Assembly (NCBI GenBank): GCA_963716525.1 | Contig: OY970315.1 | Location: forward strand, 3,238,154-3,302,153 | Length of the DNA stretch: 64,000 nt | Direction: 5' to 3' | Source of the DNA: an uncultured Actinomycetes bacterium | GTDB lineage: Bacteria; Actinomycetota; Acidimicrobiia; IMCC26256; PALSA-610 | Shown here: piece by piece, positions 157 to 57,465 of the stretch | How the letters are laid out: each line of letters opens with the position of its first letter | How positions within the stretch are numbered: the stretch's first letter is position 1 | Made by a program: the position numbers and the translations under genes | Notes under the pieces: model-generated | The model's input: the letters and a program-made list of their open reading frames with translations, nothing else | The model's database searches: none | Told to the model about the DNA's origin: nothing

Positions 157-1308
157 GTGAGAGACGACGAGGCCATGGCGCTGGCGATCGAGGCGGCCGC
201 CCGGTCCCGCCGCATCACCGCGCCGAACCCGTGGGTGGGCTGCACCATCGTGCGTGACGGTCAGCTGCTCGCGGTGGGGGCCACGGCCGGCGGCCCGGGC
301 GCGGCGCACGCCGAGCGGGTGGCGCTGGCGGCGTTGCCGGCCGGTGCCGGAGCCCGTGGTGCCACCGTCTACACGACGCTCGAGCCCTGCGACCACGAGG
401 GCAGCACCCCACCGTGCGTCGATGCGCTCCTCGACGCGGGGGTGGCGCGGGCCGTCGTCGGTATCGAGGACCCCGATCCCCGCGTGTCGGGCAAGGGCAT
501 CGCCCGGCTGCGCGCTGCGGGCATCGACGTGGTGTGCGGTGTCGGCGCCGCCGCGGTGGGGCGCCAGCTCGCGCCGTACCTCGTGCACCGGCGCACCGGC
601 CGGGCGAGCTGCGTGGTGAAGACCGCGAACTCGATCGACGGTCTCGTTGCCGCGGCGGACGGGTCGTCGCGCTGGATCACCGGGCCCGACGCGCGCGCCG
701 ACGTGCACACGCTGCGCGCCGACGCGCAGGCCGTGATCGTCGGGGCCGGCACCGCGGTGGCCGACCGCCCGCAGCTCACGGTGCGCGCGCTCCCCGAGGG
801 CGACGATGCGCCGCTCGGTCCACCGCCGCTGCGTGTGGTGCTCGACGCGCACGGGCGCGTCGACGCCGACGGCCCCCTGTTCGACGTGAGACTCGCGCCG
901 ACGCTCGTGGTCACCACGGACCAGGCCGACCAACAGCGGATCGACCTCTGGGCGAAGGCGGGCGCCGACGTGTCCATCGTCGAGACCGCCAGCGCGTCCA
1001 CGGGCCGGGGCGTCGACCTCGGCGCGGTGCTCGAGCTGCTCGGCCGGCGCGGCGTGCTCGCCGCGCTCGTGGAAGGCGGTCCGGAGCTGCACGGGGCCCT
1101 GGTCCAGTCGCACCTCGTCGACCGGCTCGTGGTCTACATGGGCAACACGATGCTCGGTGTGCACGGCATCCCCGCGCTTGCCCACGACGGCCCCGCCACG
1201 ATCGAGGGTGCGCCGCGCTGGAGGCTCGACGCGGTGCAACGCTTCGGCGACGACGTCCGCCTCGACTACGTGCCGGTCACGCACGCCGGCGCGGAAGGTC
1301 AGGTCTGA
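157..1308 (+). CDS. ribD: Bifunctional riboflavin biosynthesis protein RibD (pyrimidine deaminase / uracil reductase)
   Basis: The N-terminal deaminase has the HAE...PCxxC zinc motif (AAHAERVALAAL, TLEPCDHEGSTPPC). A C-terminal reductase domain follows. The gene sits in a rib operon. The start could be GTG 157 or ATG 175. Confidence 0.9.
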   Translation: MRDDEAMALAIEAAARSRRITAPNPWVGCTIVRDGQLLAVGATAGGPGAAHAERVALAALPAGAGARGATVYTTLEPCDHEGSTPPCVDALLDAGVARAVVGIEDPDPRVSGKGIARLRAAGIDVVCGVGAAAVGRQLAPYLVHRRTGRASCVVKTANSIDGLVAAADGSSRWITGPDARADVHTLRADAQAVIVGAGTAVADRPQLTVRALPEGDDAPLGPPPLRVVLDAHGRVDADGPLFDVRLAPTLVVTTDQADQQRIDLWAKAGADVSIVETASASTGRGVDLGAVLELLGRRGVLAALVEGGPELHGALVQSHLVDRLVVYMGNTMLGVHGIPALAHDGPATIEGAPRWRLDAVQRFGDDVRLDYVPVTHAGAEGQV

Positions 1309-1310
1309 CC

Positions 1311-1916
1311 GTGTTCACCGGGATCGTCGAGGAGCTCGGGACGGTGCGGTCGATCGTGCCGAACGAGGGTGGCGCGCGCATCGAGATCGGAGCGCGCACG
1401 GTGCTCGACGACGTGGAGCTCGGTGCGTCGATCGCCGTCAACGGTGTGTGCCTCACGGTCGTGGCCTTCGACACGGCGGCGGGCTGGTGGGGGGCCGACG
1501 CGGTCGTCGAGACCATCACGCGCACGAACCTCGGCGGCCTCGCACCCGGCGACCCGGTGAACCTCGAACGGCCGATGCGCCTCGGTGACCGCCTCGGCGG
1601 TCATCTCGTGCAAGGTCACGTGGACGGCACGGGTGTGGTGCGCGGTGTCGAGCCGCTCGCCGACGGCTCGGTGCTGCTGTCGGTCACCGCCGCACCCGAG
1701 GTGTTGCGGTACGTGGTCGCGAAGGGTTCGATCACGGTTGACGGTGTGAGCCTCACCGTCACCGAGGTGGCGCCCACGCACTTCTCGGTCGCGCTCATCC
1801 CGCACACACAGGCGGCGACGACGCTCGGCCGGGCCGAGCCGGGCACCGTCATGAACCTCGAGAACGACGTCGTCGCCAAGTACGTGGAACGTTTGGTTTC
1901 ACAGGGAGATCAATGA
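1311..1916 (+). CDS. ribE: Riboflavin synthase alpha chain
   Basis: [15 protein letters not shown]... and the duplicated lumazine-binding repeat ([13 protein letters not shown] / [13 protein letters not shown]). GTG 1311 lies 3 nt after the ribD stop. It lies in the tail of track ORF 414..1916. Confidence 0.9.
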
Positions 1917-3163
1917 TGCCCTTCGCACCGATCGAGGATGCCATCGCCGCAATCGCCCGCGGCGAGATCGTGATCGCCGTCGACGACGAGGACCGCGAGA
2001 ACGAGGGCGATCTGATCATCGCCGCCGAGAACATGACGCCCGAGAAGATGGCGTTCATGATCCGCTACACGAGCGGCGTCATCTGCATGCCGATGGAAGG
2101 CAGCCGGCTCGACGATCTCAACATCCCGCTGATGGTCGTCAACAACGAGAACACCGAGGTGCAGCGCACCGCGTTCACTGTGTCGGTCGACTACCGGCAC
2201 GGCACCACCACCGGCATCAGCGCGGCCGACCGCTGCAGCACCGTGCACGCGCTGCTCGACCCGATGGCGCGCGCCGGCGACTTCGCTCGCCCCGGGCACA
2301 TCTTCCCGTTGCGCTACCGCGACGGCGGCGTGCTGAAGCGCGCCGGCCACACCGAGGCATCGGTCGACCTCGCGCGACTTGCCGGCCTCTACCCGGCCGG
2401 CGTGCTCGCCGAGGTGGTCAACGACGACGGCACGATGGCGCGGTTACCGCAGCTCGAGGCGTTCGCCGCGGAGCACAAGCTCGTGCTGATCTCCATCGCC
2501 GACCTCGTGCGGCACCGGCGGCGCAGCGAGAAGCTCGTGCGGCGCGTGGCCGACGCGCGGATCCCCACCGACTTCGGTGACTTCACCGCGCACGTCTTCG
2601 AGTCGCTGATCGACGACACCGAGCACGTCGCATTCGTGATGGGCGACGTCGCCGGCAAGGACAACGTGCTCGTGCGCGTGCACAGCGAATGCCTCACCGG
2701 CGACGTGTTCAACTCGCTGCGTTGCGACTGCGGCCCGCAGCTGAATCTCGCCATGGCGCGGGTGGCGGCCGAAGGTCAGGGCGTCGTGGTGTACCTGCGC
2801 GGCCACGAAGGTCGCGGGATCGGCCTCGGGCACAAGCTGCGCGCGTACGCGCTGCAGGAACAGGGGCGCGACACCGTGCAGGCGAACCTCGACCTCGGGT
2901 TCCCGGTCGACTCGCGCGAGTACGGCATCGGCGCGCAGATCCTGGTCGATCTCGGTGTCACCACGATGCGGCTCATGACGAACAACATGAGCAAGTACGG
3001 GGGCCTCGAGGGCTACGGGCTCGAGATCGTCGAACGGGTGCCGCTGCTGCCGAAGCCGAACGTGGAGAACATCGCGTACCTGCGCACGAAGCAGCAGAAG
3101 CTCGGTCACCTGCTGCACATCGACGACGTCGAGGACCACGAGCTCGGCGGTGGCGATGGGTGA
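1913..3163 (+). CDS. ribBA: Bifunctional 3,4-dihydroxy-2-butanone-4-phosphate synthase / GTP cyclohydrolase II
   Basis: 416-aa ORF with an N-terminal DHBP synthase ([11 protein letters not shown]) and a C-terminal GCH II ([21 protein letters not shown]). ATGA overlap with ribE. Confidence 0.93.
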
Positions 3164-9296: not shown

Positions 9297-11708
9297 ATGC
9301 GCGCACCGCTCTCCTGGATCCGTGACTTCACACCGCTCGACGGCTCGGTCGCCGGCGCGGCCGCGATCGCCGACGCGCTGAACCAGCTCGGCCTGGAGGT
9401 CGAGGCGATCGAGGAACCCGGCGCCGAGATCCGTGGGGTGGTGGCGGCACGGATCCTCGAGGTGTTGCCGCATCCCGACGCCGACAAGGTTCGGCTGGCC
9501 GACGTCGACTACGGCGAGGGTCAGCTCCGCGTGGTCTGCGGCGCACCGAACATCGAGGCGGGCATGGTCGTGCCCTTCGCTCGCGTCGGCGCGAGCCTGC
9601 CGGGCGGTTTCGAGATCAGCCGGCGCAAGATCCGTGGGATCGTGAGCGAAGGCATGCTGTGCTCGGCGCGCGAGCTCGGCCTCGGCGACGGCCACGACGG
9701 CATCCTCGCGCTCGACGCGGCGGCGGAGCTCGGTCGTGACGTGCGCGACGTGCTCGGTCTCGACGACACCATCTTCGACCTGTCGATCACCACGAACCGT
9801 CCCGACGCCATGAGCGTGATCGGCGTGGCGCGCGAGCTCGCCGCGCACTTCGGGCTGCCGTTCGAGGTGCCCGAAGCGCCGGCTCCGGCGCGCACCGCTC
9901 CACACGACGCCGACGGCATCACCGCGGTCGTGGAAGCCACCGAGCGTTGCCCGCGGCTCGTGCTGCGCGCCGCGCGCATCACGATGGGCCCCTCGCCCGA
10001 GTGGTTGCAGCGCCGGCTCGTGCTCGCGGGGATGCGTCCCATCAGCAACGTCGTCGACGTCACCAACTACGTGATGCTCGAGCGCTGCCGCCCGCTGCAC
10101 GCGTTCGACCTCGGCCGCCTCGCGGGTCGCGGGCTCGTGGTGCGGCTCGCCGCGGAAGGCGAACGCATGACCACCCTCGACGGTGTCGAGCGCGCCCTCA
10201 CGAGCAACGAGCTGCTGATCTGCGACGGCGAACGGCGCCCGCAGGCGATCGCCGGGATCATGGGCGGGCGCCACAGCGAGGTTCACGACGGCACCGGCGA
10301 GATCCTGCTGGAGTCGGCGTACTTCTCGCCCGGTGGCATCTCACGGTCGAGCAAGCGCCTCGGCCTGCGCTCGGAGGCGAGCGCGCGCTTCGAGCGCGGC
10401 GTCGACCCGAACGGCTGCGGCACCGGCGCCGACCGGGCCATCGAGCTGCTGGTCGAGGTCGCGGCGGCCGCGCCCTCCGACACTGCGATCGACGTGTATC
10501 CGGTGCCGGTCGAGCGGCCGCGCGTCACCGTGCGCACCGCACGGGTCAACGCGATCCTCGGCACGGAGCTCGACACGCCCACTGTGCGGCAACTGCTCGC
10601 GCCACTCGGTATCGAGGTGGAGCCGGGACCTGCGCCCGACACCACGGTTGCGCGCTGTCCCACGTGGCGGCCCGACCTCGAGCGCGAGATCGACCTCGTG
10701 GAGGAGGTGGCCCGCCGCCACGGGCTCGACAAGATCGCGCGCACCGTCGCGTCGGCGCCGCCGGGAAGCGTCGGGCGGCTCACGCCCCGCCAGCGCGAGC
10801 GGCGGCTCGTCGCCGACGTGCTCGTCGGCGCGGGCTACGCCGAGGCGGTCACGATGCCGCTCGTGGCACCGGCCGACGTCGTCGCGGTCGGCACACCACC
10901 CGAGCGCGCGGTACGCGTCGCCAACCCGCTGCGCGCCGAGGAGTCGGTGCTGCGCGTGAGCCTGCGGCCCGGCCTGCTCGCGGCCGTCGCCCGCAACACC
11001 GCCCGCGGCAACCCCGATCTCGCGCTGTTCGAGATGGGTGCGGTGTTCCTCGCACCGCAACCAGGCACGCTCCTGCCCACCGAGCGCACGACGGTGGCGG
11101 GCCTGCGCGCCGGGCAGCTGCGCGTGCCGCCCCGGCCCGATGCCCGGCCCGTGGAGGTCGCCGACGCCGTCGACGCGGTGCACGCGATCGCGGGCTCGCT
11201 CGGTCTGTGTTCCGTGCGCATCGTGCCCGACCCGACGCTCCCGGGGCTGCATCCGGCGCGCGGGGCGCGTGTCGTGGTCGACGGCGCGCCGGCCGGGGTG
11301 GTGGGGGAGTACGACCCGCACGTGCTGCGCCCGCTCGGCATCGGCGGTACCGTCGTCGGCTTCGAGCTCGATCTCGATTCGCTGCGCGCCGCGGCACGCA
11401 GCGCCGCGATCTTCCGGCCGGTGTCCACGTTCCCGCCGGCGAACATCGATCTCGCGTTCGTGGTGTCCACCGACGTCGTCGCCGCCGACGTCGCGGACAC
11501 GCTGCGAGCCGCGGGCGGCGAGCTGCTCGAGTCGGTCCGCGTGTTCGACGTGTACCGCTCCGACGAGCTCGGCCCGGATCGCGTGAGCCTCGCGTTCACG
11601 TTGCGGTTCCGTGCACCCGACCGCACGCTCACCGACGCCGAGATCGCCGAGCTGCGCGCCGCGTGCATCGCCGCGGCCGAACGTGACCACGGAGCCGGGC
11701 TCAGGTGA
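9297..11708 (+). CDS. pheT: Phenylalanine--tRNA ligase beta subunit
   Basis: 803-aa ORF with an N-terminal tRNA-binding domain (VVAARILEVLPHPDADKVRLADVDYG) followed by B3/4, B5 and FDX-ACB domains. Confidence 0.93.
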   Translation: MRAPLSWIRDFTPLDGSVAGAAAIADALNQLGLEVEAIEEPGAEIRGVVAARILEVLPHPDADKVRLADVDYGEGQLRVVCGAPNIEAGMVVPFARVGASLPGGFEISRRKIRGIVSEGMLCSARELGLGDGHDGILALDAAAELGRDVRDVLGLDDTIFDLSITTNRPDAMSVIGVARELAAHFGLPFEVPEAPAPARTAPHDADGITAVVEATERCPRLVLRAARITMGPSPEWLQRRLVLAGMRPISNVVDVTNYVMLERCRPLHAFDLGRLAGRGLVVRLAAEGERMTTLDGVERALTSNELLICDGERRPQAIAGIMGGRHSEVHDGTGEILLESAYFSPGGISRSSKRLGLRSEASARFERGVDPNGCGTGADRAIELLVEVAAAAPSDTAIDVYPVPVERPRVTVRTARVNAILGTELDTPTVRQLLAPLGIEVEPGPAPDTTVARCPTWRPDLEREIDLVEEVARRHGLDKIARTVASAPPGSVGRLTPRQRERRLVADVLVGAGYAEAVTMPLVAPADVVAVGTPPERAVRVANPLRAEESVLRVSLRPGLLAAVARNTARGNPDLALFEMGAVFLAPQPGTLLPTERTTVAGLRAGQLRVPPRPDARPVEVADAVDAVHAIAGSLGLCSVRIVPDPTLPGLHPARGARVVVDGAPAGVVGEYDPHVLRPLGIGGTVVGFELDLDSLRAAARSAAIFRPVSTFPPANIDLAFVVSTDVVAADVADTLRAAGGELLESVRVFDVYRSDELGPDRVSLAFTLRFRAPDRTLTDAEIAELRAACIAAAERDHGAGLR

Positions 11709-17194: not shown

Positions 17195-17400
17195 TCCGTC
17201 GGACCCCGTCTCCTCGAGGGTCCTGGCCGAGCCGCCTCACGGCGGCGTGTACGGCAGCGGCGCATGCACTGGCGCCGCCGAGAGGATGGGCATCCTGGCT
17301 CGCGTTCCCGGGGCCGTGCCTCGGTGACGCTTACAGTTGCGGGTCAGCGCCGGACTCGCACCGGCTTCCCCCGGCCCGTCGTGCGACGGACCCACACCAG
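17195..17400 (-). promoter_or_regulatory. Cobalamin (B12) riboswitch
   Basis: The minus strand reads GGGAAGCCGGTGCGAGTCCGGCGCTGACCCGCAACTGTAA (17370-17331), which is the conserved GGGAA..GGTG..TCC..GC.G.CCCGC.ACTGT core. A B12-box-like AGCCAGGATGCCC is at 17300-17288. GCCAGTG is at 17273-17267. A CCTCT anti-SD (17286-17282) could pair with the GGAGG SD (17197-17193). Confidence 0.8.
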
Positions 17401-17555
17401 GCCTCCGAGCCTGGCGTGATCACTCCGGCCCGGACACTACCGTGCCGCCGCCCGCGGTGCGTCACCGTCGACCTCCGTTGATCGGGATAGCGTGCGCGGC
17501 GCGACGCCGATCACGGCGCCGCCGGCGCGTCTGCGCCACGGGCAAGGGGGCATTC

Positions 17556-23731: not shown

Positions 23732-23775
23732 CATGCGTCGTTTGGGTACCAAATAGCGGTCCCAAACGACGCATG
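23732..23775. repeat. 44-bp palindromic element, copy 1 (intergenic)
   Basis: CATGCGTCGTTTGGG (23732-23746), a 14-nt loop TACCAAATAGCGGT, then CCCAAACGACGCATG (23761-23775). The inverted repeat is a perfect 15 bp. A second copy is at 54919-54962. Confidence 0.95.
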
Positions 23776-53473: not shown

Positions 53474-53875
53474 TCAGGTAACCACGGTGAGTGGTGTGAC
53501 GACGCTGGATCCGGTTTCGGTGATCGTGCAGCGAGCCTCGACCGTGCCGGCCTCGGGGAACGTCAGCTCGGGCCGCACGAGCTGGTAGAAGAACTTGCCC
53601 GGCGGCTGGATCGTGACCGGTGCCCGATGATGGCCGATCTCCTCGCCGTCGGAGCCGGAATCGGCCTCGCGCACGAAGGCGACGTCGAGCGTTCCCGTGC
53701 GCGCCGCGTCAGCCTCGGCCCGCAGCAGCACGAGGAGGTGCGGCGTGACCAGCGCGGGGAACTCCTGGGCCGCCGTCGAGAAGTAGGCGCCGGTGATGTC
53801 GATCTTCGTCGGCCCACCCTCGTACTCGCGGCGGAACTCGACGTTGTCGATCCACAGTGCGGCGACGATCTGCAT
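53474..53875 (-). CDS. Hypothetical protein
   Basis: 133-aa ORF with protein-like composition. No family is recognised. Confidence 0.4.
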   Translation of the reverse strand: MQIVAALWIDNVEFRREYEGGPTKIDITGAYFSTAAQEFPALVTPHLLVLLRAEADAARTGTLDVAFVREADSGSDGEEIGHHRAPVTIQPPGKFFYQLVRPELTFPEAGTVEARCTITETGSSVVTPLTVVT

Positions 53876-53887
53876 CGGACGCGGACG

Positions 53888-55019
53888 CTACCGCGCGCCG
53901 CGTTCGCCACCCACCCAGACGCCCACGACCGGCGAACTGCCGTGCGCCCCCGTCGTGTCGATCGCGACGATGTCGGCGCGCCGCCCGGGTTCGATGCGAC
54001 CGCGCGTGCCGTCGCCCAGCAGATCGCAGGCGTAGCCCGACGTGAGCATCGCGACCCGCGCCGGGTCCACGCCGAGATCCAGCACGTTGCGTGCGGCGCC
54101 GGCGAGGGTGACCGCCGAGCCCGCGAGCGTGCCGTCGCGCAGGTACACCGCTCCGTCGCGTGCGACGATCTCGAGCCCACCCGACGTGCCCGCGCCCGGT
54201 GCGACCGCGTCACTCACGAGCACGACGTGCTCCGTTGCCGCGAGCGCGAGCTGTACCACCGGCGCGCCGACGTGGTGCAGGTCGGCGATCAGGCTCGGCG
54301 TGAGTCGCCCGTCGACGAGCGCGGCCTCCGCGAGACCGGGATCGCGATGGTGCATCGGGCGCATCCCGTTGAAGAGATGGGTGACGACGCGCGCGCCGGC
54401 GTCGGCGGCGGCGACTGCCTCGGCGAACGAACAGGTCGAGTGGCCGAGCGCGACGATCACGCCGCGTTCGGCGAGCAGGCGGGTGCCCACGAGACCGGGG
54501 TCGGCCTCGGGAGCGAGCGTCACCATGCGGACGAGGTCGCCGTGCCGGTCGAGCAGTCGCTCCAGCCACGCGAGGTCGACCGTTCGCAACAGATCGCGCG
54601 GGTGCGCGCCCGGCGCGCCGCCGAGAAACGGTCCCTCGAGGTGCACGCCGAGCAGTGCGCACGACCCATCGGGACGATCCGCGACGAGGTCGCGGCCGCG
54701 GCGAACGCGGTCGAGTATCTCGTCGTAGGCGTCGAGCGGCGCGGTGACGATCGTGGGCAGGCAGGCCGTCGTGCCGCACGACGCCAGCTCGTCGAGCGCC
54801 CGCGCGATCTCGTGCTCGTTGCGCGCGGGTCGCGAAGTCGATGTCGCCGGCACCGTTCACCTGCAGGTCGACGAACCCGGGGAGCAGCACCGCCCCCGAA
54901 AGGTCGACGAAATCGCCACATGCGTCGTTTGGGACCGCTATATGGGCCCCAAACGACGCATGCGCGATCGTGGGGCCGTCGAACTGGAGCCAGCCGTTGG
55001 CGCCGGCGACGGTGGTCAC
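53888..55019 (-). pseudogene. nagA: N-acetylglucosamine-6-phosphate deacetylase NagA, 1-nt insertion near 54828 plus an in-frame 45-nt palindromic-element insertion
   Basis: The N-terminus from GTG 55019 (VTTVAGANGWLQFDGPTIA[HASFGAHIAVPNDAC]GDFVDLSGAVLLPGFVDLQVNGAGDIDF) is in one frame. ARNEHEIARALDEL...GVHLEGPF...ALGHS...THLFNGM... is in the next frame (track ORF 53888..54853). Confidence 0.8.
54919..54962. repeat. 44-bp palindromic element, copy 2 (inside the nagA reading frame, inverted relative to copy 1)
   Basis: CATGCGTCGTTTGGG (54919-54933), the loop ACCGCTATATGGGC, then CCCAAACGACGCATG (54948-54962). The arms are identical to copy 1. The loop matches the reverse complement of the copy-1 loop at 11 of 14 positions. 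Confidence 0.95.
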
Positions 55020-55038
55020 GGCCACCTCCCCGACGGGC

Positions 55039-55773
55039 TCACGGCCGCCGCCGGTTGCCGAGCGCGCGACGCAGCCGCACGAGGCCCCAGAGTGTGCGCG
55101 GCACGCGGCCGAGCAGGGGCGAGCGGGCGGGGCGTCGCTCCACCACCGACACCGGGATCTCCTCGACGGCGAGGCCGGCCCGCTCGGCCCGCAGGATGAG
55201 CTCGGTGTCGAACAGGTCACGGCCGAGCGTGCACTCCTGCGCGCAGCCGAGCAGCGCCGCGCGCCGCATCGCCTTCATTCCGTGGGTGTCCGACGCCCGC
55301 AGGCCGAAGCCAGCGCGCAGGATCATCGAGAACATCCACGTCACCAGGCGCCGGGCCCAGCTCCGGCGGTCATCCGCGCCGGGTGCCCGCTTCGAGCCGA
55401 CCACCACCGCGGGCCCGTCCGCGGCGCGCAGCCGCGTGATCGCACGGTCGAGGAAGTCGGTGTCGTAGTAGTCGCAGTCGAAGTTCACGACGAGCTCGCC
55501 GCGTGCGTCCAGCAGCCCGGCGCGCAGTGCGCCGCCATAGTCGGCGACGGCACGGTGCAGCACCCGCACCTCGGGGATCGCACCGCCGAGGCGGCGCGCG
55601 ATCGCGAGCGTGTCGTCGGTGGAGCCGTTCTCGACGACGACGACCTCGAAGGCATCGCCCCGCGCCCGCAACTGTTCCGTGACGTGCTCCACCGATTCGG
55701 CGAGGATCTCCGACTCGTTGAAGGCTGGCATCACCACCGACAGCGCAACGCTCCCACCGGCGGCGCCTTGCAT
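55039..55773 (-). CDS. Family 2 glycosyltransferase (polyprenol-phosphate sugar transferase-like)
   Basis: ATG 55773. LSVVMPAFNESE, VVVVENGSTDDT and NFDCDYYD (the DxD region). It lies in the tail of track ORF 55039..57444. Confidence 0.8.
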   Translation of the reverse strand: MQGAAGGSVALSVVMPAFNESEILAESVEHVTEQLRARGDAFEVVVVENGSTDDTLAIARRLGGAIPEVRVLHRAVADYGGALRAGLLDARGELVVNFDCDYYDTDFLDRAITRLRAADGPAVVVGSKRAPGADDRRSWARRLVTWMFSMILRAGFGLRASDTHGMKAMRRAALLGCAQECTLGRDLFDTELILRAERAGLAVEEIPVSVVERRPARSPLLGRVPRTLWGLVRLRRALGNRRRP

Positions 55774-55827: not shown

Positions 55828-57465
55828 ATGGCGGCAACCGATGTGCTCGCGTTGCACGCCCGCTCGATGCCCGACGCGGTCGCGGTCGTCGTCGACGCGA
55901 GCGGCGGCGGGCGCACGTCGACCACGACGTTCGCCGCATTGAACGACCTTGTGAACACGTGCGCGCACGGGTTGCTCGACGCCGGCGGGCGCGCGGGGGA
56001 GCGCCTCGTGTGGTGCGGGCCGAACTCGCTCGAGGTGCTCGTGACCATCCATGCGGCCCGCAAGCTGGGCATGGTGGCCGTGCCGCTCTCGTACCGGTTC
56101 ACCGCCGAGGAGATGGCGTACGTCGTCGAGAACTCCGACGCGACGCTGGTGGTCGCCGACGCCGATCAGGCCGAGACGGTGATCGCGGCCACGGCCGGGT
56201 CGGCGCGCGTCCGCGCGGTCGTGGTGTTCGGTGGCGAGGTGCCCGCCAGGACAGCGGGCGGGACATCGGGCGGGACACCGGGCGGGACATCGAGCGGGAC
56301 ATCGGGTGGGGCGCTCTCGTGGGACGGGCTGCTCGCGGGCCGGCCCACCACCGAACCGCCGGCGCCCGAGCATGCCTCGGAGGCCGGCGCGCAGATGATC
56401 TACACGAGCGGCACCACGGGAAAGCCGAAGGGCGCGCTGCGCACGCGCACCGACCGCTCGATCGTGTCGGCGCTGCTCGCCGAGCTCGGGCTCGGACAGG
56501 CCGACGACGTGCACCTCACCACGGGCCCGCTCTACCACTCGGGGCCGCTCGCCTTCGCCTCGATGAGCCACACGCTCGGCCGTCCAGTGGTCGTGCTGCG
56601 CCGCTTCGATCCGGTTGCGTGGTTGCGCCTCGTGGGGGAACACCGCGTCACCAACACGTTCAGCGCGCCCACGCAGCTGAAGCGCATCGTGTCGCTGCCG
56701 CCCGAGGAGCTCGCCGGCGCCGACATGTCGTCGATGCGCTGCCTCATCGCCAATGCCGCGCCCGTGCCGTATGCGCTCAAGTGCGAGGTCGTGGAGAAGC
56801 TCGGCGACGGCTTCCTCTACGAGGTGTACGGCTCCACGGAGCTCGGCGTCGACACGGTGCTGCGGCCCGAGGACCAGTTGCGCAAGCCCGGTTCGTGCGG
56901 CCGCCCCTACGGCGGCATCGAGGTGAAGGTGGTGCAGGACGACGGCACCGCCGCGCCGCGCGGCACCGCGGGCGAGCTGTTCGTGCGCACCGGCCTCGCG
57001 ATGGACGGCTACCACAAGACCGCGGAGCAGGTCACCGAGCTCGCGGGGAGTGGGGGTGGAGACCCATCCGGATGGAAGTCGGTCGGCGACGTGGCCTACG
57101 TCGACGACGAGGGCTACGTGTACATCTGCGACCGCAAGAAGGACATGATCATCTCCGGGGGCGTGAACATCTACCCGGCCGAGATCGAGGCGGTGCTCCA
57201 CGCGCACCCGGCGGTGCTCGACGCGGCCGTGTTCGGCGTGCCCGACGACGAGTGGGGCGAAGCGGTGCACGCGGTGGTGCAGGCGAAGCCCGGTATCACA
57301 CTCGATCTGGACGAGCTCGCCGCGTTCGCCAATGAACGGCTGGCCGGCTACAAGCGGCCGCGCACGTGGGAGCAACGCGACGAGCTGCCGCGCACCGAGA
57401 GCGGCAAGCTGCTGAAGCGCGTTCTGCGTGACGAGCACTGGCACGGTCGCACCACGCAGGTGTGA
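55828..57465 (+). CDS. AMP-forming acyl-CoA synthetase (FadD-like adenylate-forming enzyme)
   Basis: 545-aa ORF with the AMP-binding motifs IYTSGTTGKPKGA, EVYGSTE, GDVAYVDDEGYVYICDRKKDMII and a C-terminal lysine (SGKLLKR). Confidence 0.85.
   Translation: MAATDVLALHARSMPDAVAVVVDASGGGRTSTTTFAALNDLVNTCAHGLLDAGGRAGERLVWCGPNSLEVLVTIHAARKLGMVAVPLSYRFTAEEMAYVVENSDATLVVADADQAETVIAATAGSARVRAVVVFGGEVPARTAGGTSGGTPGGTSSGTSGGALSWDGLLAGRPTTEPPAPEHASEAGAQMIYTSGTTGKPKGALRTRTDRSIVSALLAELGLGQADDVHLTTGPLYHSGPLAFASMSHTLGRPVVVLRRFDPVAWLRLVGEHRVTNTFSAPTQLKRIVSLPPEELAGADMSSMRCLIANAAPVPYALKCEVVEKLGDGFLYEVYGSTELGVDTVLRPEDQLRKPGSCGRPYGGIEVKVVQDDGTAAPRGTAGELFVRTGLAMDGYHKTAEQVTELAGSGGGDPSGWKSVGDVAYVDDEGYVYICDRKKDMIISGGVNIYPAEIEAVLHAHPAVLDAAVFGVPDDEWGEAVHAVVQAKPGITLDLDELAAFANERLAGYKRPRTWEQRDELPRTESGKLLKRVLRDEHWHGRTTQV
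56255..56314 (+). repeat. Imperfect 12-bp x5 in-frame tandem repeat inside the acyl-CoA synthetase gene
   Basis: The units are gcgggcgggaca / tcgggcgggaca / ccgggcgggaca / tcgagcgggaca / tcgggtggggcg. They encode AGGTSGGTPGGTSSGTSGGA. Confidence 0.9.

Follow-up and report, generated by a model that had tools for sequence, protein, structure and literature searches.

Does the long palindrome near the 5′ end of nagA in this Acidimicrobiia genome represent a dispersed repeat that is read through as part of the enzyme, a regulatory hairpin of the gene, a leader element ahead of its real start, or a lesion in a gene that is decaying? The palindrome lies in a 64,000-nucleotide stretch of DNA (hereafter the window) with a G+C content of 71.6%. 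Its core (copy A; 54919..54962, minus strand, the sense strand of nagA) consists of two perfect 15-nt arms, CATGCGTCGTTTGGG and CCCAAACGACGCATG, enclosing a 14-nt loop, GCCCATATAGCGGT, for a total of 44 bases. The arms can be stretched to 18 nt at 94% complementarity, leaving an 8-nt loop, and flanking pairs (ATCGC...GCGAT) extend the full hairpin predicted by RNA folding to about 54907..54971 on the same strand. A 72-nt segment containing copy A folds at -45.3 kcal/mol, compared with -22.9 ± 2.8 kcal/mol for shuffled sequences (z = -8.1), and none of 200 shuffles folded equally well. By our own estimate, not computed by a tool, about 0.001 perfect 15+15 inverted repeats would be expected in 64 kb. 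The arms have an identical match in the window only at 23732-23775. With up to three mismatches allowed, the arm 15-mer matches the window four times, a count that is by itself not above chance; all four matches are exact, and they make up two full palindromes. These data confirm a real hairpin repeat inside nagA, and the coordinates, translation and frame assigned to it in a preliminary description of this DNA are all correct.

Fifteen codons run through the element in the nagA frame (54918..54962, minus strand), CAT GCG TCG TTT GGG GCC CAT ATA GCG GTC CCA AAC GAC GCA TGT, and encode residues 20-34, HASFGAHIAVPNDAC. Upstream of these codons the protein reads ...FDGPTIA and downstream GDFVDLSGAVLLPGFVDLQVNG, in a single frame throughout. 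The preliminary description had claimed that the element sits in frame inside the coding sequence and that the frame is kept across it; both points hold, with one frame running from the GTG at 55019. This start codon lies 6 nt past a Shine-Dalgarno-like GGGAGG (55025..55030, minus strand; direct sequence reading) and 19 nt past the TGA stop codon of an upstream, co-directional glycosyltransferase gene (55039..55041, minus strand), which itself is 77 nt upstream of the palindrome. Copy A begins 57 nt into nagA. The 5′ part of the gene, in what we call frame A, extends from the GTG over 54831..55019 (minus strand) and holds a QVN motif equivalent to HxH, while the remainder, in frame B, occupies 53888..54820 (minus strand) through the stop codon.

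Were the true start of nagA located downstream, for example at the GTG of codon 44, which follows GGGGG, the element would belong to the leader and the 19 codons ahead of it would be a remnant. An in-frame GTG with a G-rich stretch is indeed found just past the element, and REPs at annotated N-termini are often really extragenic (PMC3733652). However, the 19 codons upstream of the element are homologous to the N-termini of orthologues (MTTVxGANGWVRFD..I), and 12 of them are identical to the closest orthologue, a level in keeping with the rest of the protein. In addition, the GTG at 55019 has the good GGGAGG site, while initiation at codon 44 would cost three strands of the N-terminal β domain that are kept by 15 of 15 orthologues. 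We therefore regard a downstream start as very improbable. Because the orthologues share this N-terminus, the element is placed inside the coding sequence of the ancestral nagA and not, as the preliminary description had allowed, in a 5′ UTR.

Copy A belongs to a dispersed repeat family. Copy B (23732..23775, plus strand) has arms identical to those of copy A and a loop, TACCAAATAGCGGT, that differs from GCCCATATAGCGGT at 3 of 14 positions; on the nagA-sense strand the two copies share CATG...CATGTGG. It is intergenic, placed 5 nt past the stop codon of an SDR gene and ~20 nt ahead of the start of fxsA (gene identities from Pfam), with the element strand in the sense direction as in copy A. 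A third copy lies outside the window on the same 4,594,535-bp contig, where it forms the tail, ...SPHPHASFGYQIAVPNDACAIGGVG, of a DUF501 protein of 165 aa (P0122). The last 25 residues of this protein are element-derived and lie beyond the Pfam domain (residues 18-134), the stop codon follows 8 codons later, and strand and frame are as in the nagA copy. All three known copies thus carry the same element strand in the mRNA sense. The third copy was located by a protein-word search with the open frames of the element. Such peptide-word searches are insensitive, as a 15/15 match scores only 26 bits; the yield was P0122 plus two spurious short ORFs, and an in-frame copy in an ABC exporter gene of a soil contig (see below) was not recovered. 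The three source-genome copies are known from the 64-kb window and this search, and the family in the source genome could be very small. In a relaxed motif search, no degenerate copies came up in the window or in the 324 kb of loci fetched, and inverted pairs of units (REPIN, BIME) were absent, both window copies and all fetched loci holding single units. Rfam gave no relevant match at gathering or permissive thresholds, the best matches at the element being chance-level miRNA models. The only gathering-level Rfam match in the window is a cobalamin riboswitch (RF00174) at 17268-17410 on the minus strand (49.3 bits, E = 2.6e-9).

A second alternative, raised in the preliminary description, holds that selection has kept the hairpin here as a cis-regulatory RNA of nagA, acting in attenuation, processing or RNA stability. 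A very stable hairpin 57 nt into the coding sequence and 77 nt past the upstream stop could stabilise the 3′ end of the upstream transcript or act as a barrier, and the uniform orientation relative to the mRNA in three of three known copies would agree with a role in RNA. Yet the element is also present at unrelated loci and is missing from the syntenic nagA genes of four relatives, in which no hairpin occurs at the equivalent place (fold z -0.3 to +0.3). Moreover, it has no T-run, no terminator-like site was predicted in 53800-55300, copy B is likewise not followed by a T-run, and there is no Rfam match. Any RNA effect would be a by-product common to all copies rather than specific to nagA. 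The regulatory proposal is unsupported by these observations, and we consider it improbable.

For comparison with orthologues, the nagA protein was analysed after removal of one base, which yields 376 aa. This frameshift-corrected protein scores 195 bits against the TIGR00221 nagA profile, under the curated cut-off of 225.65, and solved NagA structures match it at E = 5e-40, the homology beginning at residue 36, right after the element. By homology, the gene is clearly NagA-like (N-acetylglucosamine-6-phosphate deacetylase family), the exact substrate assignment being a prediction. Its nearest orthologues show 72-73% (P0002, P0003), 66-68% (P0004) and 63-67% (P0005) identity, and their loci are syntenic with the window, in the order AMP-ligase / GT2 / nagA / 129-133-aa protein / FIST / transketolase. 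As a separate observation, an AMP-binding enzyme gene of the window (55828-57465) contains at ~56230-56300 (plus strand) a low-complexity, repeat-like protein stretch, GGTSGGTPGGTSSGTSGG (ARCPARCPARCP on the opposite strand), which looks like a short tandem repeat expansion.

All 15 aligned orthologues have a segment of 15-33 residues between a conserved Ile and a PGF motif. The segment measures 28 residues here and 23-26 in the three closest orthologues; without the 15 element residues it would measure 13, shorter than in all orthologues and lacking the x-A-x-G-x-[GD] turn motif. Because removal of the element leaves a linker below that of every orthologue, a simple 45-nt insertion is doubtful. 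The preliminary description had placed a 45-nt insert between FDGPTIA and GDFVDL, and of this proposal the in-frame copy stands while the simple insertion does not, given the 15-33-residue linker in 15 orthologues. The outcome that it had named as a refutation is partly seen in the orthologue alignment that it recommended: the orthologues lack the palindrome, yet have a segment at the same position and of similar length.

The right end of the element together with its flank (54918-54932) reads AAC GAC GCA TGT GGC (N-D-A-C-G), and the native motif of P0005 (L042:~10052-10066) reads ATC GAC GCG TGC GGC (I-D-A-C-G), a match at 12 of 15 nt. This match may be fortuitous, or it may hint that the element inserted at a site of microhomology. 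Two histories of the linker are compatible with these data. Either native codons gave way to the element, or a short-form linker of 15 residues gained a net 39 nt, with the insertion site at GACGCATGTGG and the N-D-A-C-G of the element coinciding with a native I-D-A-[AC]-G motif. No empty site was seen among the orthologous nagA loci compared, and because the closest orthologue is only 72-73% identical, the insertion boundaries and the displaced codons cannot be fixed.

In an AlphaFold2 model (pLDDT 89.1), residues 17-23 form a strand, residues 24-35 are coil with a local pLDDT of 77-81, and residues 36-40 form the next strand. The element, in frame, thus occupies a fold-compatible position, a strand extension plus coil of locally lower confidence in the predicted N-terminal β domain. 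In NagA structures, this small domain lies away from the active site of the barrel.

In the deposited sequence nagA is interrupted by a +1 frameshift in the run ACCCGCGCGC (54821..54830, minus strand), a probable assembly indel, and in the public record only a 321-aa 3′ ORF is called, from the GTG at 54853 (P0001, 100% identity). A tblastn comparison with 18 syntenic proteins of one related locus (L039) showed nagA to be the only split gene in that section. A whole-window, GC3-based Viterbi segmentation, used in place of a sliding GC3 plot that was too noisy, picked out additional places where the frame changes on one strand with no stop codon. Profile searches confirmed that domains are split in an SDR gene (~23140, plus strand; adh_short profile positions 2-50 in one frame and 54-190 in the other), a DrrA-like ABC ATPase gene (~28423, plus strand; TIGR01188 positions 1-173 and 177-301), a GlcD-like oxidase gene (~35406, plus strand; FAD-oxidase_C positions 2-72 and 91-248) and a GlcE-like oxidase gene (~36170, plus strand), with a possible sixth case in CofGH/FbiC (~43835, minus strand). 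The window therefore holds five or more +1 frameshifts, each of them in a CGCGC-rich run, and the one near 54828 is separate from the element, as previously stated. Because there are five or six in 64 kb, all in the same direction, we read them as assembly indels; systematic single-base insertions in the assembly are the most likely cause, the alternative being an unusual burst of pseudogene formation.

The element and the frameshift might nonetheless be two lesions in a decaying gene, the frame across the element being kept by coincidence. The deposited sequence is, after all, frameshifted and annotated only for its 3′ part. By our own reading of the sequence, just one of the element's six reading frames is closed, for a prior of roughly 0.3 that it would be stop-free and in frame. 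NagA also has slightly more lineage-specific substitutions than its sisters (29-39 versus 21-30 unique substitutions), an excess that is not significant in relative-rate tests for relaxed selection (chi-square 0.7-3.0), although always in the same direction, and that is not seen in the adjoining genes. On the other hand, at least four more genes in the 64 kb have +1 frameshifts in similar GC-rich runs, which argues for assembly error; all columns invariant in the 15 orthologues are kept, the sole deviation being the reconstructed frameshift site; and there are no in-frame stops except those due to the frameshift. We consider decay unlikely. In our judgement nagA is quite probably intact in the organism, and in that case the in-frame status of the element is biologically meaningful.

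Related palindromes occur in other genomes. A genome scan detected two, GATGCGTCGTTTGGGG...CCCCAAACGACGCATC, in the Acidimicrobiia MAG JBBREP01, which also carries the syntenic NagA orthologue P0005. One of them fills a 53-nt gap separating two convergent genes; the copy at L001 has a convergent stop codon on either side, at 10 and 9 nt. The other (L003:1907-2010) falls in codons 21-35, MRRLGPLYGPQTTHQ, of an ORF that opens with an ATG overlapping the stop codon of an ECF-sigma-like gene. It is a further intragenic copy near an N-terminus or, should translation really begin farther downstream, a leader element. A metagenome scan with the 11+11-nt core yielded 34 loci. About half of these look like unrelated chance hairpins, while 16 of the 34 represent one soil family, GCTGACTT-CGTCGTTTGGG-ATCCATATGGAT-CCCAAACGACG-AAGTCAGC, which shares the core and a CATATG centre. 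In its inner stem, compensatory double changes keep the pairing, and its covariation score of 0.094, compared with 0.057 for shuffles, was matched by 1 of 500 shuffles. The design of the search accounts in part for the core that the families have in common; their common (C)ATATG/TATAG loop centre suggests, but does not prove, that they are truly related. No copies were found in the viral contigs or plasmids searched, and tblastx revealed no orthologous overlap of the soil contigs with the window or its relatives.

Most soil-family copies are situated 4-30 nt from stop codons. The outer arm of this family, GCTGAC / GTCAGC, contains TGA on both strands, and for at least five copies the neighbouring gene ends on this TGA of the repeat. 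At six loci (L004, L007, L027, L034, L035 and L019), where the outer-arm TGA is the stop codon of the adjacent gene, the repeat appears to have replaced or supplied the gene end. One further copy (L018; contig Ga0209177_10001516, 1665-1740) lies in frame within an ABC exporter gene (971-2857, minus strand) that is apparently intact and encodes 628 aa. Relative to solved (PDB) homologues, the protein has an insert of 22 residues just before the Walker A strand, reading APPPPLTSSFGIHMDPKRRSQRGESEGKW where the solved homologues have ~6 residues. The analogy with the Rickettsia palindromic elements (RPEs), drawn in the preliminary description for nagA, holds; a sister family has a clear in-frame copy inside this exporter gene.

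How do these repeats relate to known systems? REPs have been surveyed in >80 species, where they show a stop-codon-proximal distribution with ends that provide stop codons; several species have REPs wholly within ORFs, and the CGTC repeats found inside R. conorii genes match RPE-4 and RPE-6 (Di Nocera et al. 2013, PMC3733652). Likewise, intragenic MITEs that make in-frame fusions are 'not unusual' (2024 MITE review, PMC10969869). The statement in the preliminary description that such insertions are unusual outside Rickettsia is thus not supported, as intragenic, frame-preserving REPs and MITEs are found in many species (PMC3733652, PMC10969869).

Like REPs and REPINs, the element is a short dispersed palindrome with a stable stem-loop, 44 nt compared with the classical 20-40 bp. 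The preferred site of REPs, within ~20 nt of the 3′ ends of ORFs and between unidirectional or convergent genes, is shared as well, with copy B located 5 nt and copy A 77 nt past a stop codon and the soil copies mostly 4-30 nt from one. In both cases the ends of the element at times supply a stop codon, compensatory changes keep the stems paired, and a minority of copies, located wholly inside ORFs, is translated in frame. Unlike the REP GTAG/CGTC super-families, however, the element has no unpaired tag at one end, its CGTC being base-paired inside the stem (CGTCG/CGACG). CGTC REPs, which also have a CCA tail, have a stem of 8-9 bp and a loop of 4-5 nt, compared with 15-18 bp and 8-14 nt here, and membership in that group on account of the CGTCG core was rejected given the paired tag and the different stem and loop dimensions. 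In further contrast, the window copies are singletons and not inverted pairs as in REPINs, and the survey in PMC3733652 does not list the phylum of the host, Actinomycetota (Acidimicrobiia), among those with tagged REPs. The number of copies amounts to two in 64 kb plus one elsewhere on the 4.59-Mb chromosome (P0122).

With RPEs, the element shares the condition of a palindromic selfish repeat in frame in a housekeeping enzyme gene, encoding a peptide that is not predicted to disturb the fold. RPE-1-type elements are larger (about 100-150 bp, 30-50 residues, compared with 44-47 nt and 15 residues), nearly half of the Rickettsia copies are intragenic, whereas most members of the present family are intergenic, and the phylum differs. 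Assignment to RPE-1 to RPE-10 was discarded in view of the size (44-47 nt) and the Acidimicrobiia-like host. MITEs (ERIC, Correia, Nezha) are similarly non-autonomous, have terminal inverted repeats, form RNA hairpins and give in-frame fusions when intragenic (PMC10969869), but the element lacks a target-site duplication and falls far under their usual 50-500 bp. It has the inverted arms of a MITE, but its flanks are not direct repeats. A strong hairpin directly past stop codons is also typical of rho-independent terminators and SPRITE-like repeats, yet the T-run that follows the stem in rho-independent terminators is absent at every copy examined. Readings as attC, dif, operator or CRISPR sequences were dropped, as there is no core-site match and no array and the arms are too long for an operator. 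The most fitting classification is a new REP-like family without a tag, belonging to an already known kind of intragenic repeat.

Based on these results, we suggest, with a probability of roughly 0.7, that the palindrome is a REP-like or mini-MITE-like selfish hairpin repeat, one copy of which is tolerated in a surface loop of NagA. The family would be a small, dispersed, non-coding hairpin repeat in this Acidimicrobiia genome, and related and other high-GC bacteria would carry diverged forms of it. Its members typically sit just past stop codons, between co-directional or convergent genes, where they would be transcribed and would fold into very stable 3′ or intercistronic hairpins. Copy A would have landed 77 nt past the glycosyltransferase stop, which, because the intergenic gap is short, would have placed it inside the next gene, within the first 35 codons of nagA. 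It may have been retained there because it is stop-free in the nagA frame and sits in a length-variable loop, occupying a β-hairpin turn and hypervariable linker in which it would replace or extend the segment of 15-33 residues. An effect at the RNA level, if any, would be generic to the family, stabilising the 3′ end of the upstream transcript or impeding transcription or translation into nagA. That the repeat is mobile is suggested by the dispersal of its copies only. Neither window copy has a target-site duplication (flanks GCG / TGG for copy A, CCT / TGG for copy B), and no transposase, the RAYT (Y1) type that REPs flank included, was noticed on general inspection of the 64-kb window. We know of no parent IS with matching ends.

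A more far-reaching interpretation is that the CGTCGTTTGGG...(C)ATATG/TATAG...CCCAAACGACG hairpin constitutes a conserved, functional module of high-GC Actinomycetota, more than mere junk, that is recognised by a protein, placed at stop codons and spread by a homology-guided mechanism. The mid-stem and loop centre would then be bound by an unknown transposase or by an RNA- or DNA-binding factor, and the module would target sequences resembling its own end and sometimes supply stop codons. The resemblance between the I-D-A-C-G of NagA and the ...N-D-A-C-G of the element would fit such behaviour, with a net insertion of 39 nt at a microhomologous site. If correct, this interpretation would imply a new super-family of REPs that inserts by a new mechanism and can rewrite protein loops; we hold it to be unlikely.

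On the reading that we prefer, a selfish repeat tolerated by NagA, the nagA palindrome is a neat but fairly ordinary example, intragenic repeats being known from several bacterial groups. It opens no new class of biology, and may be useful for work on repeats that remodel protein loops. It also has value for annotation, since nagA is truncated in the public record and probable assembly indels split several genes of the region. The locus would provide a clean case, outside the Proteobacteria, in which a selfish hairpin repeat is translated as part of a conserved enzyme. It also indicates that Acidimicrobiia and other high-GC soil bacteria have a REP-like family, so far undescribed, whose copies gather at stop codons.
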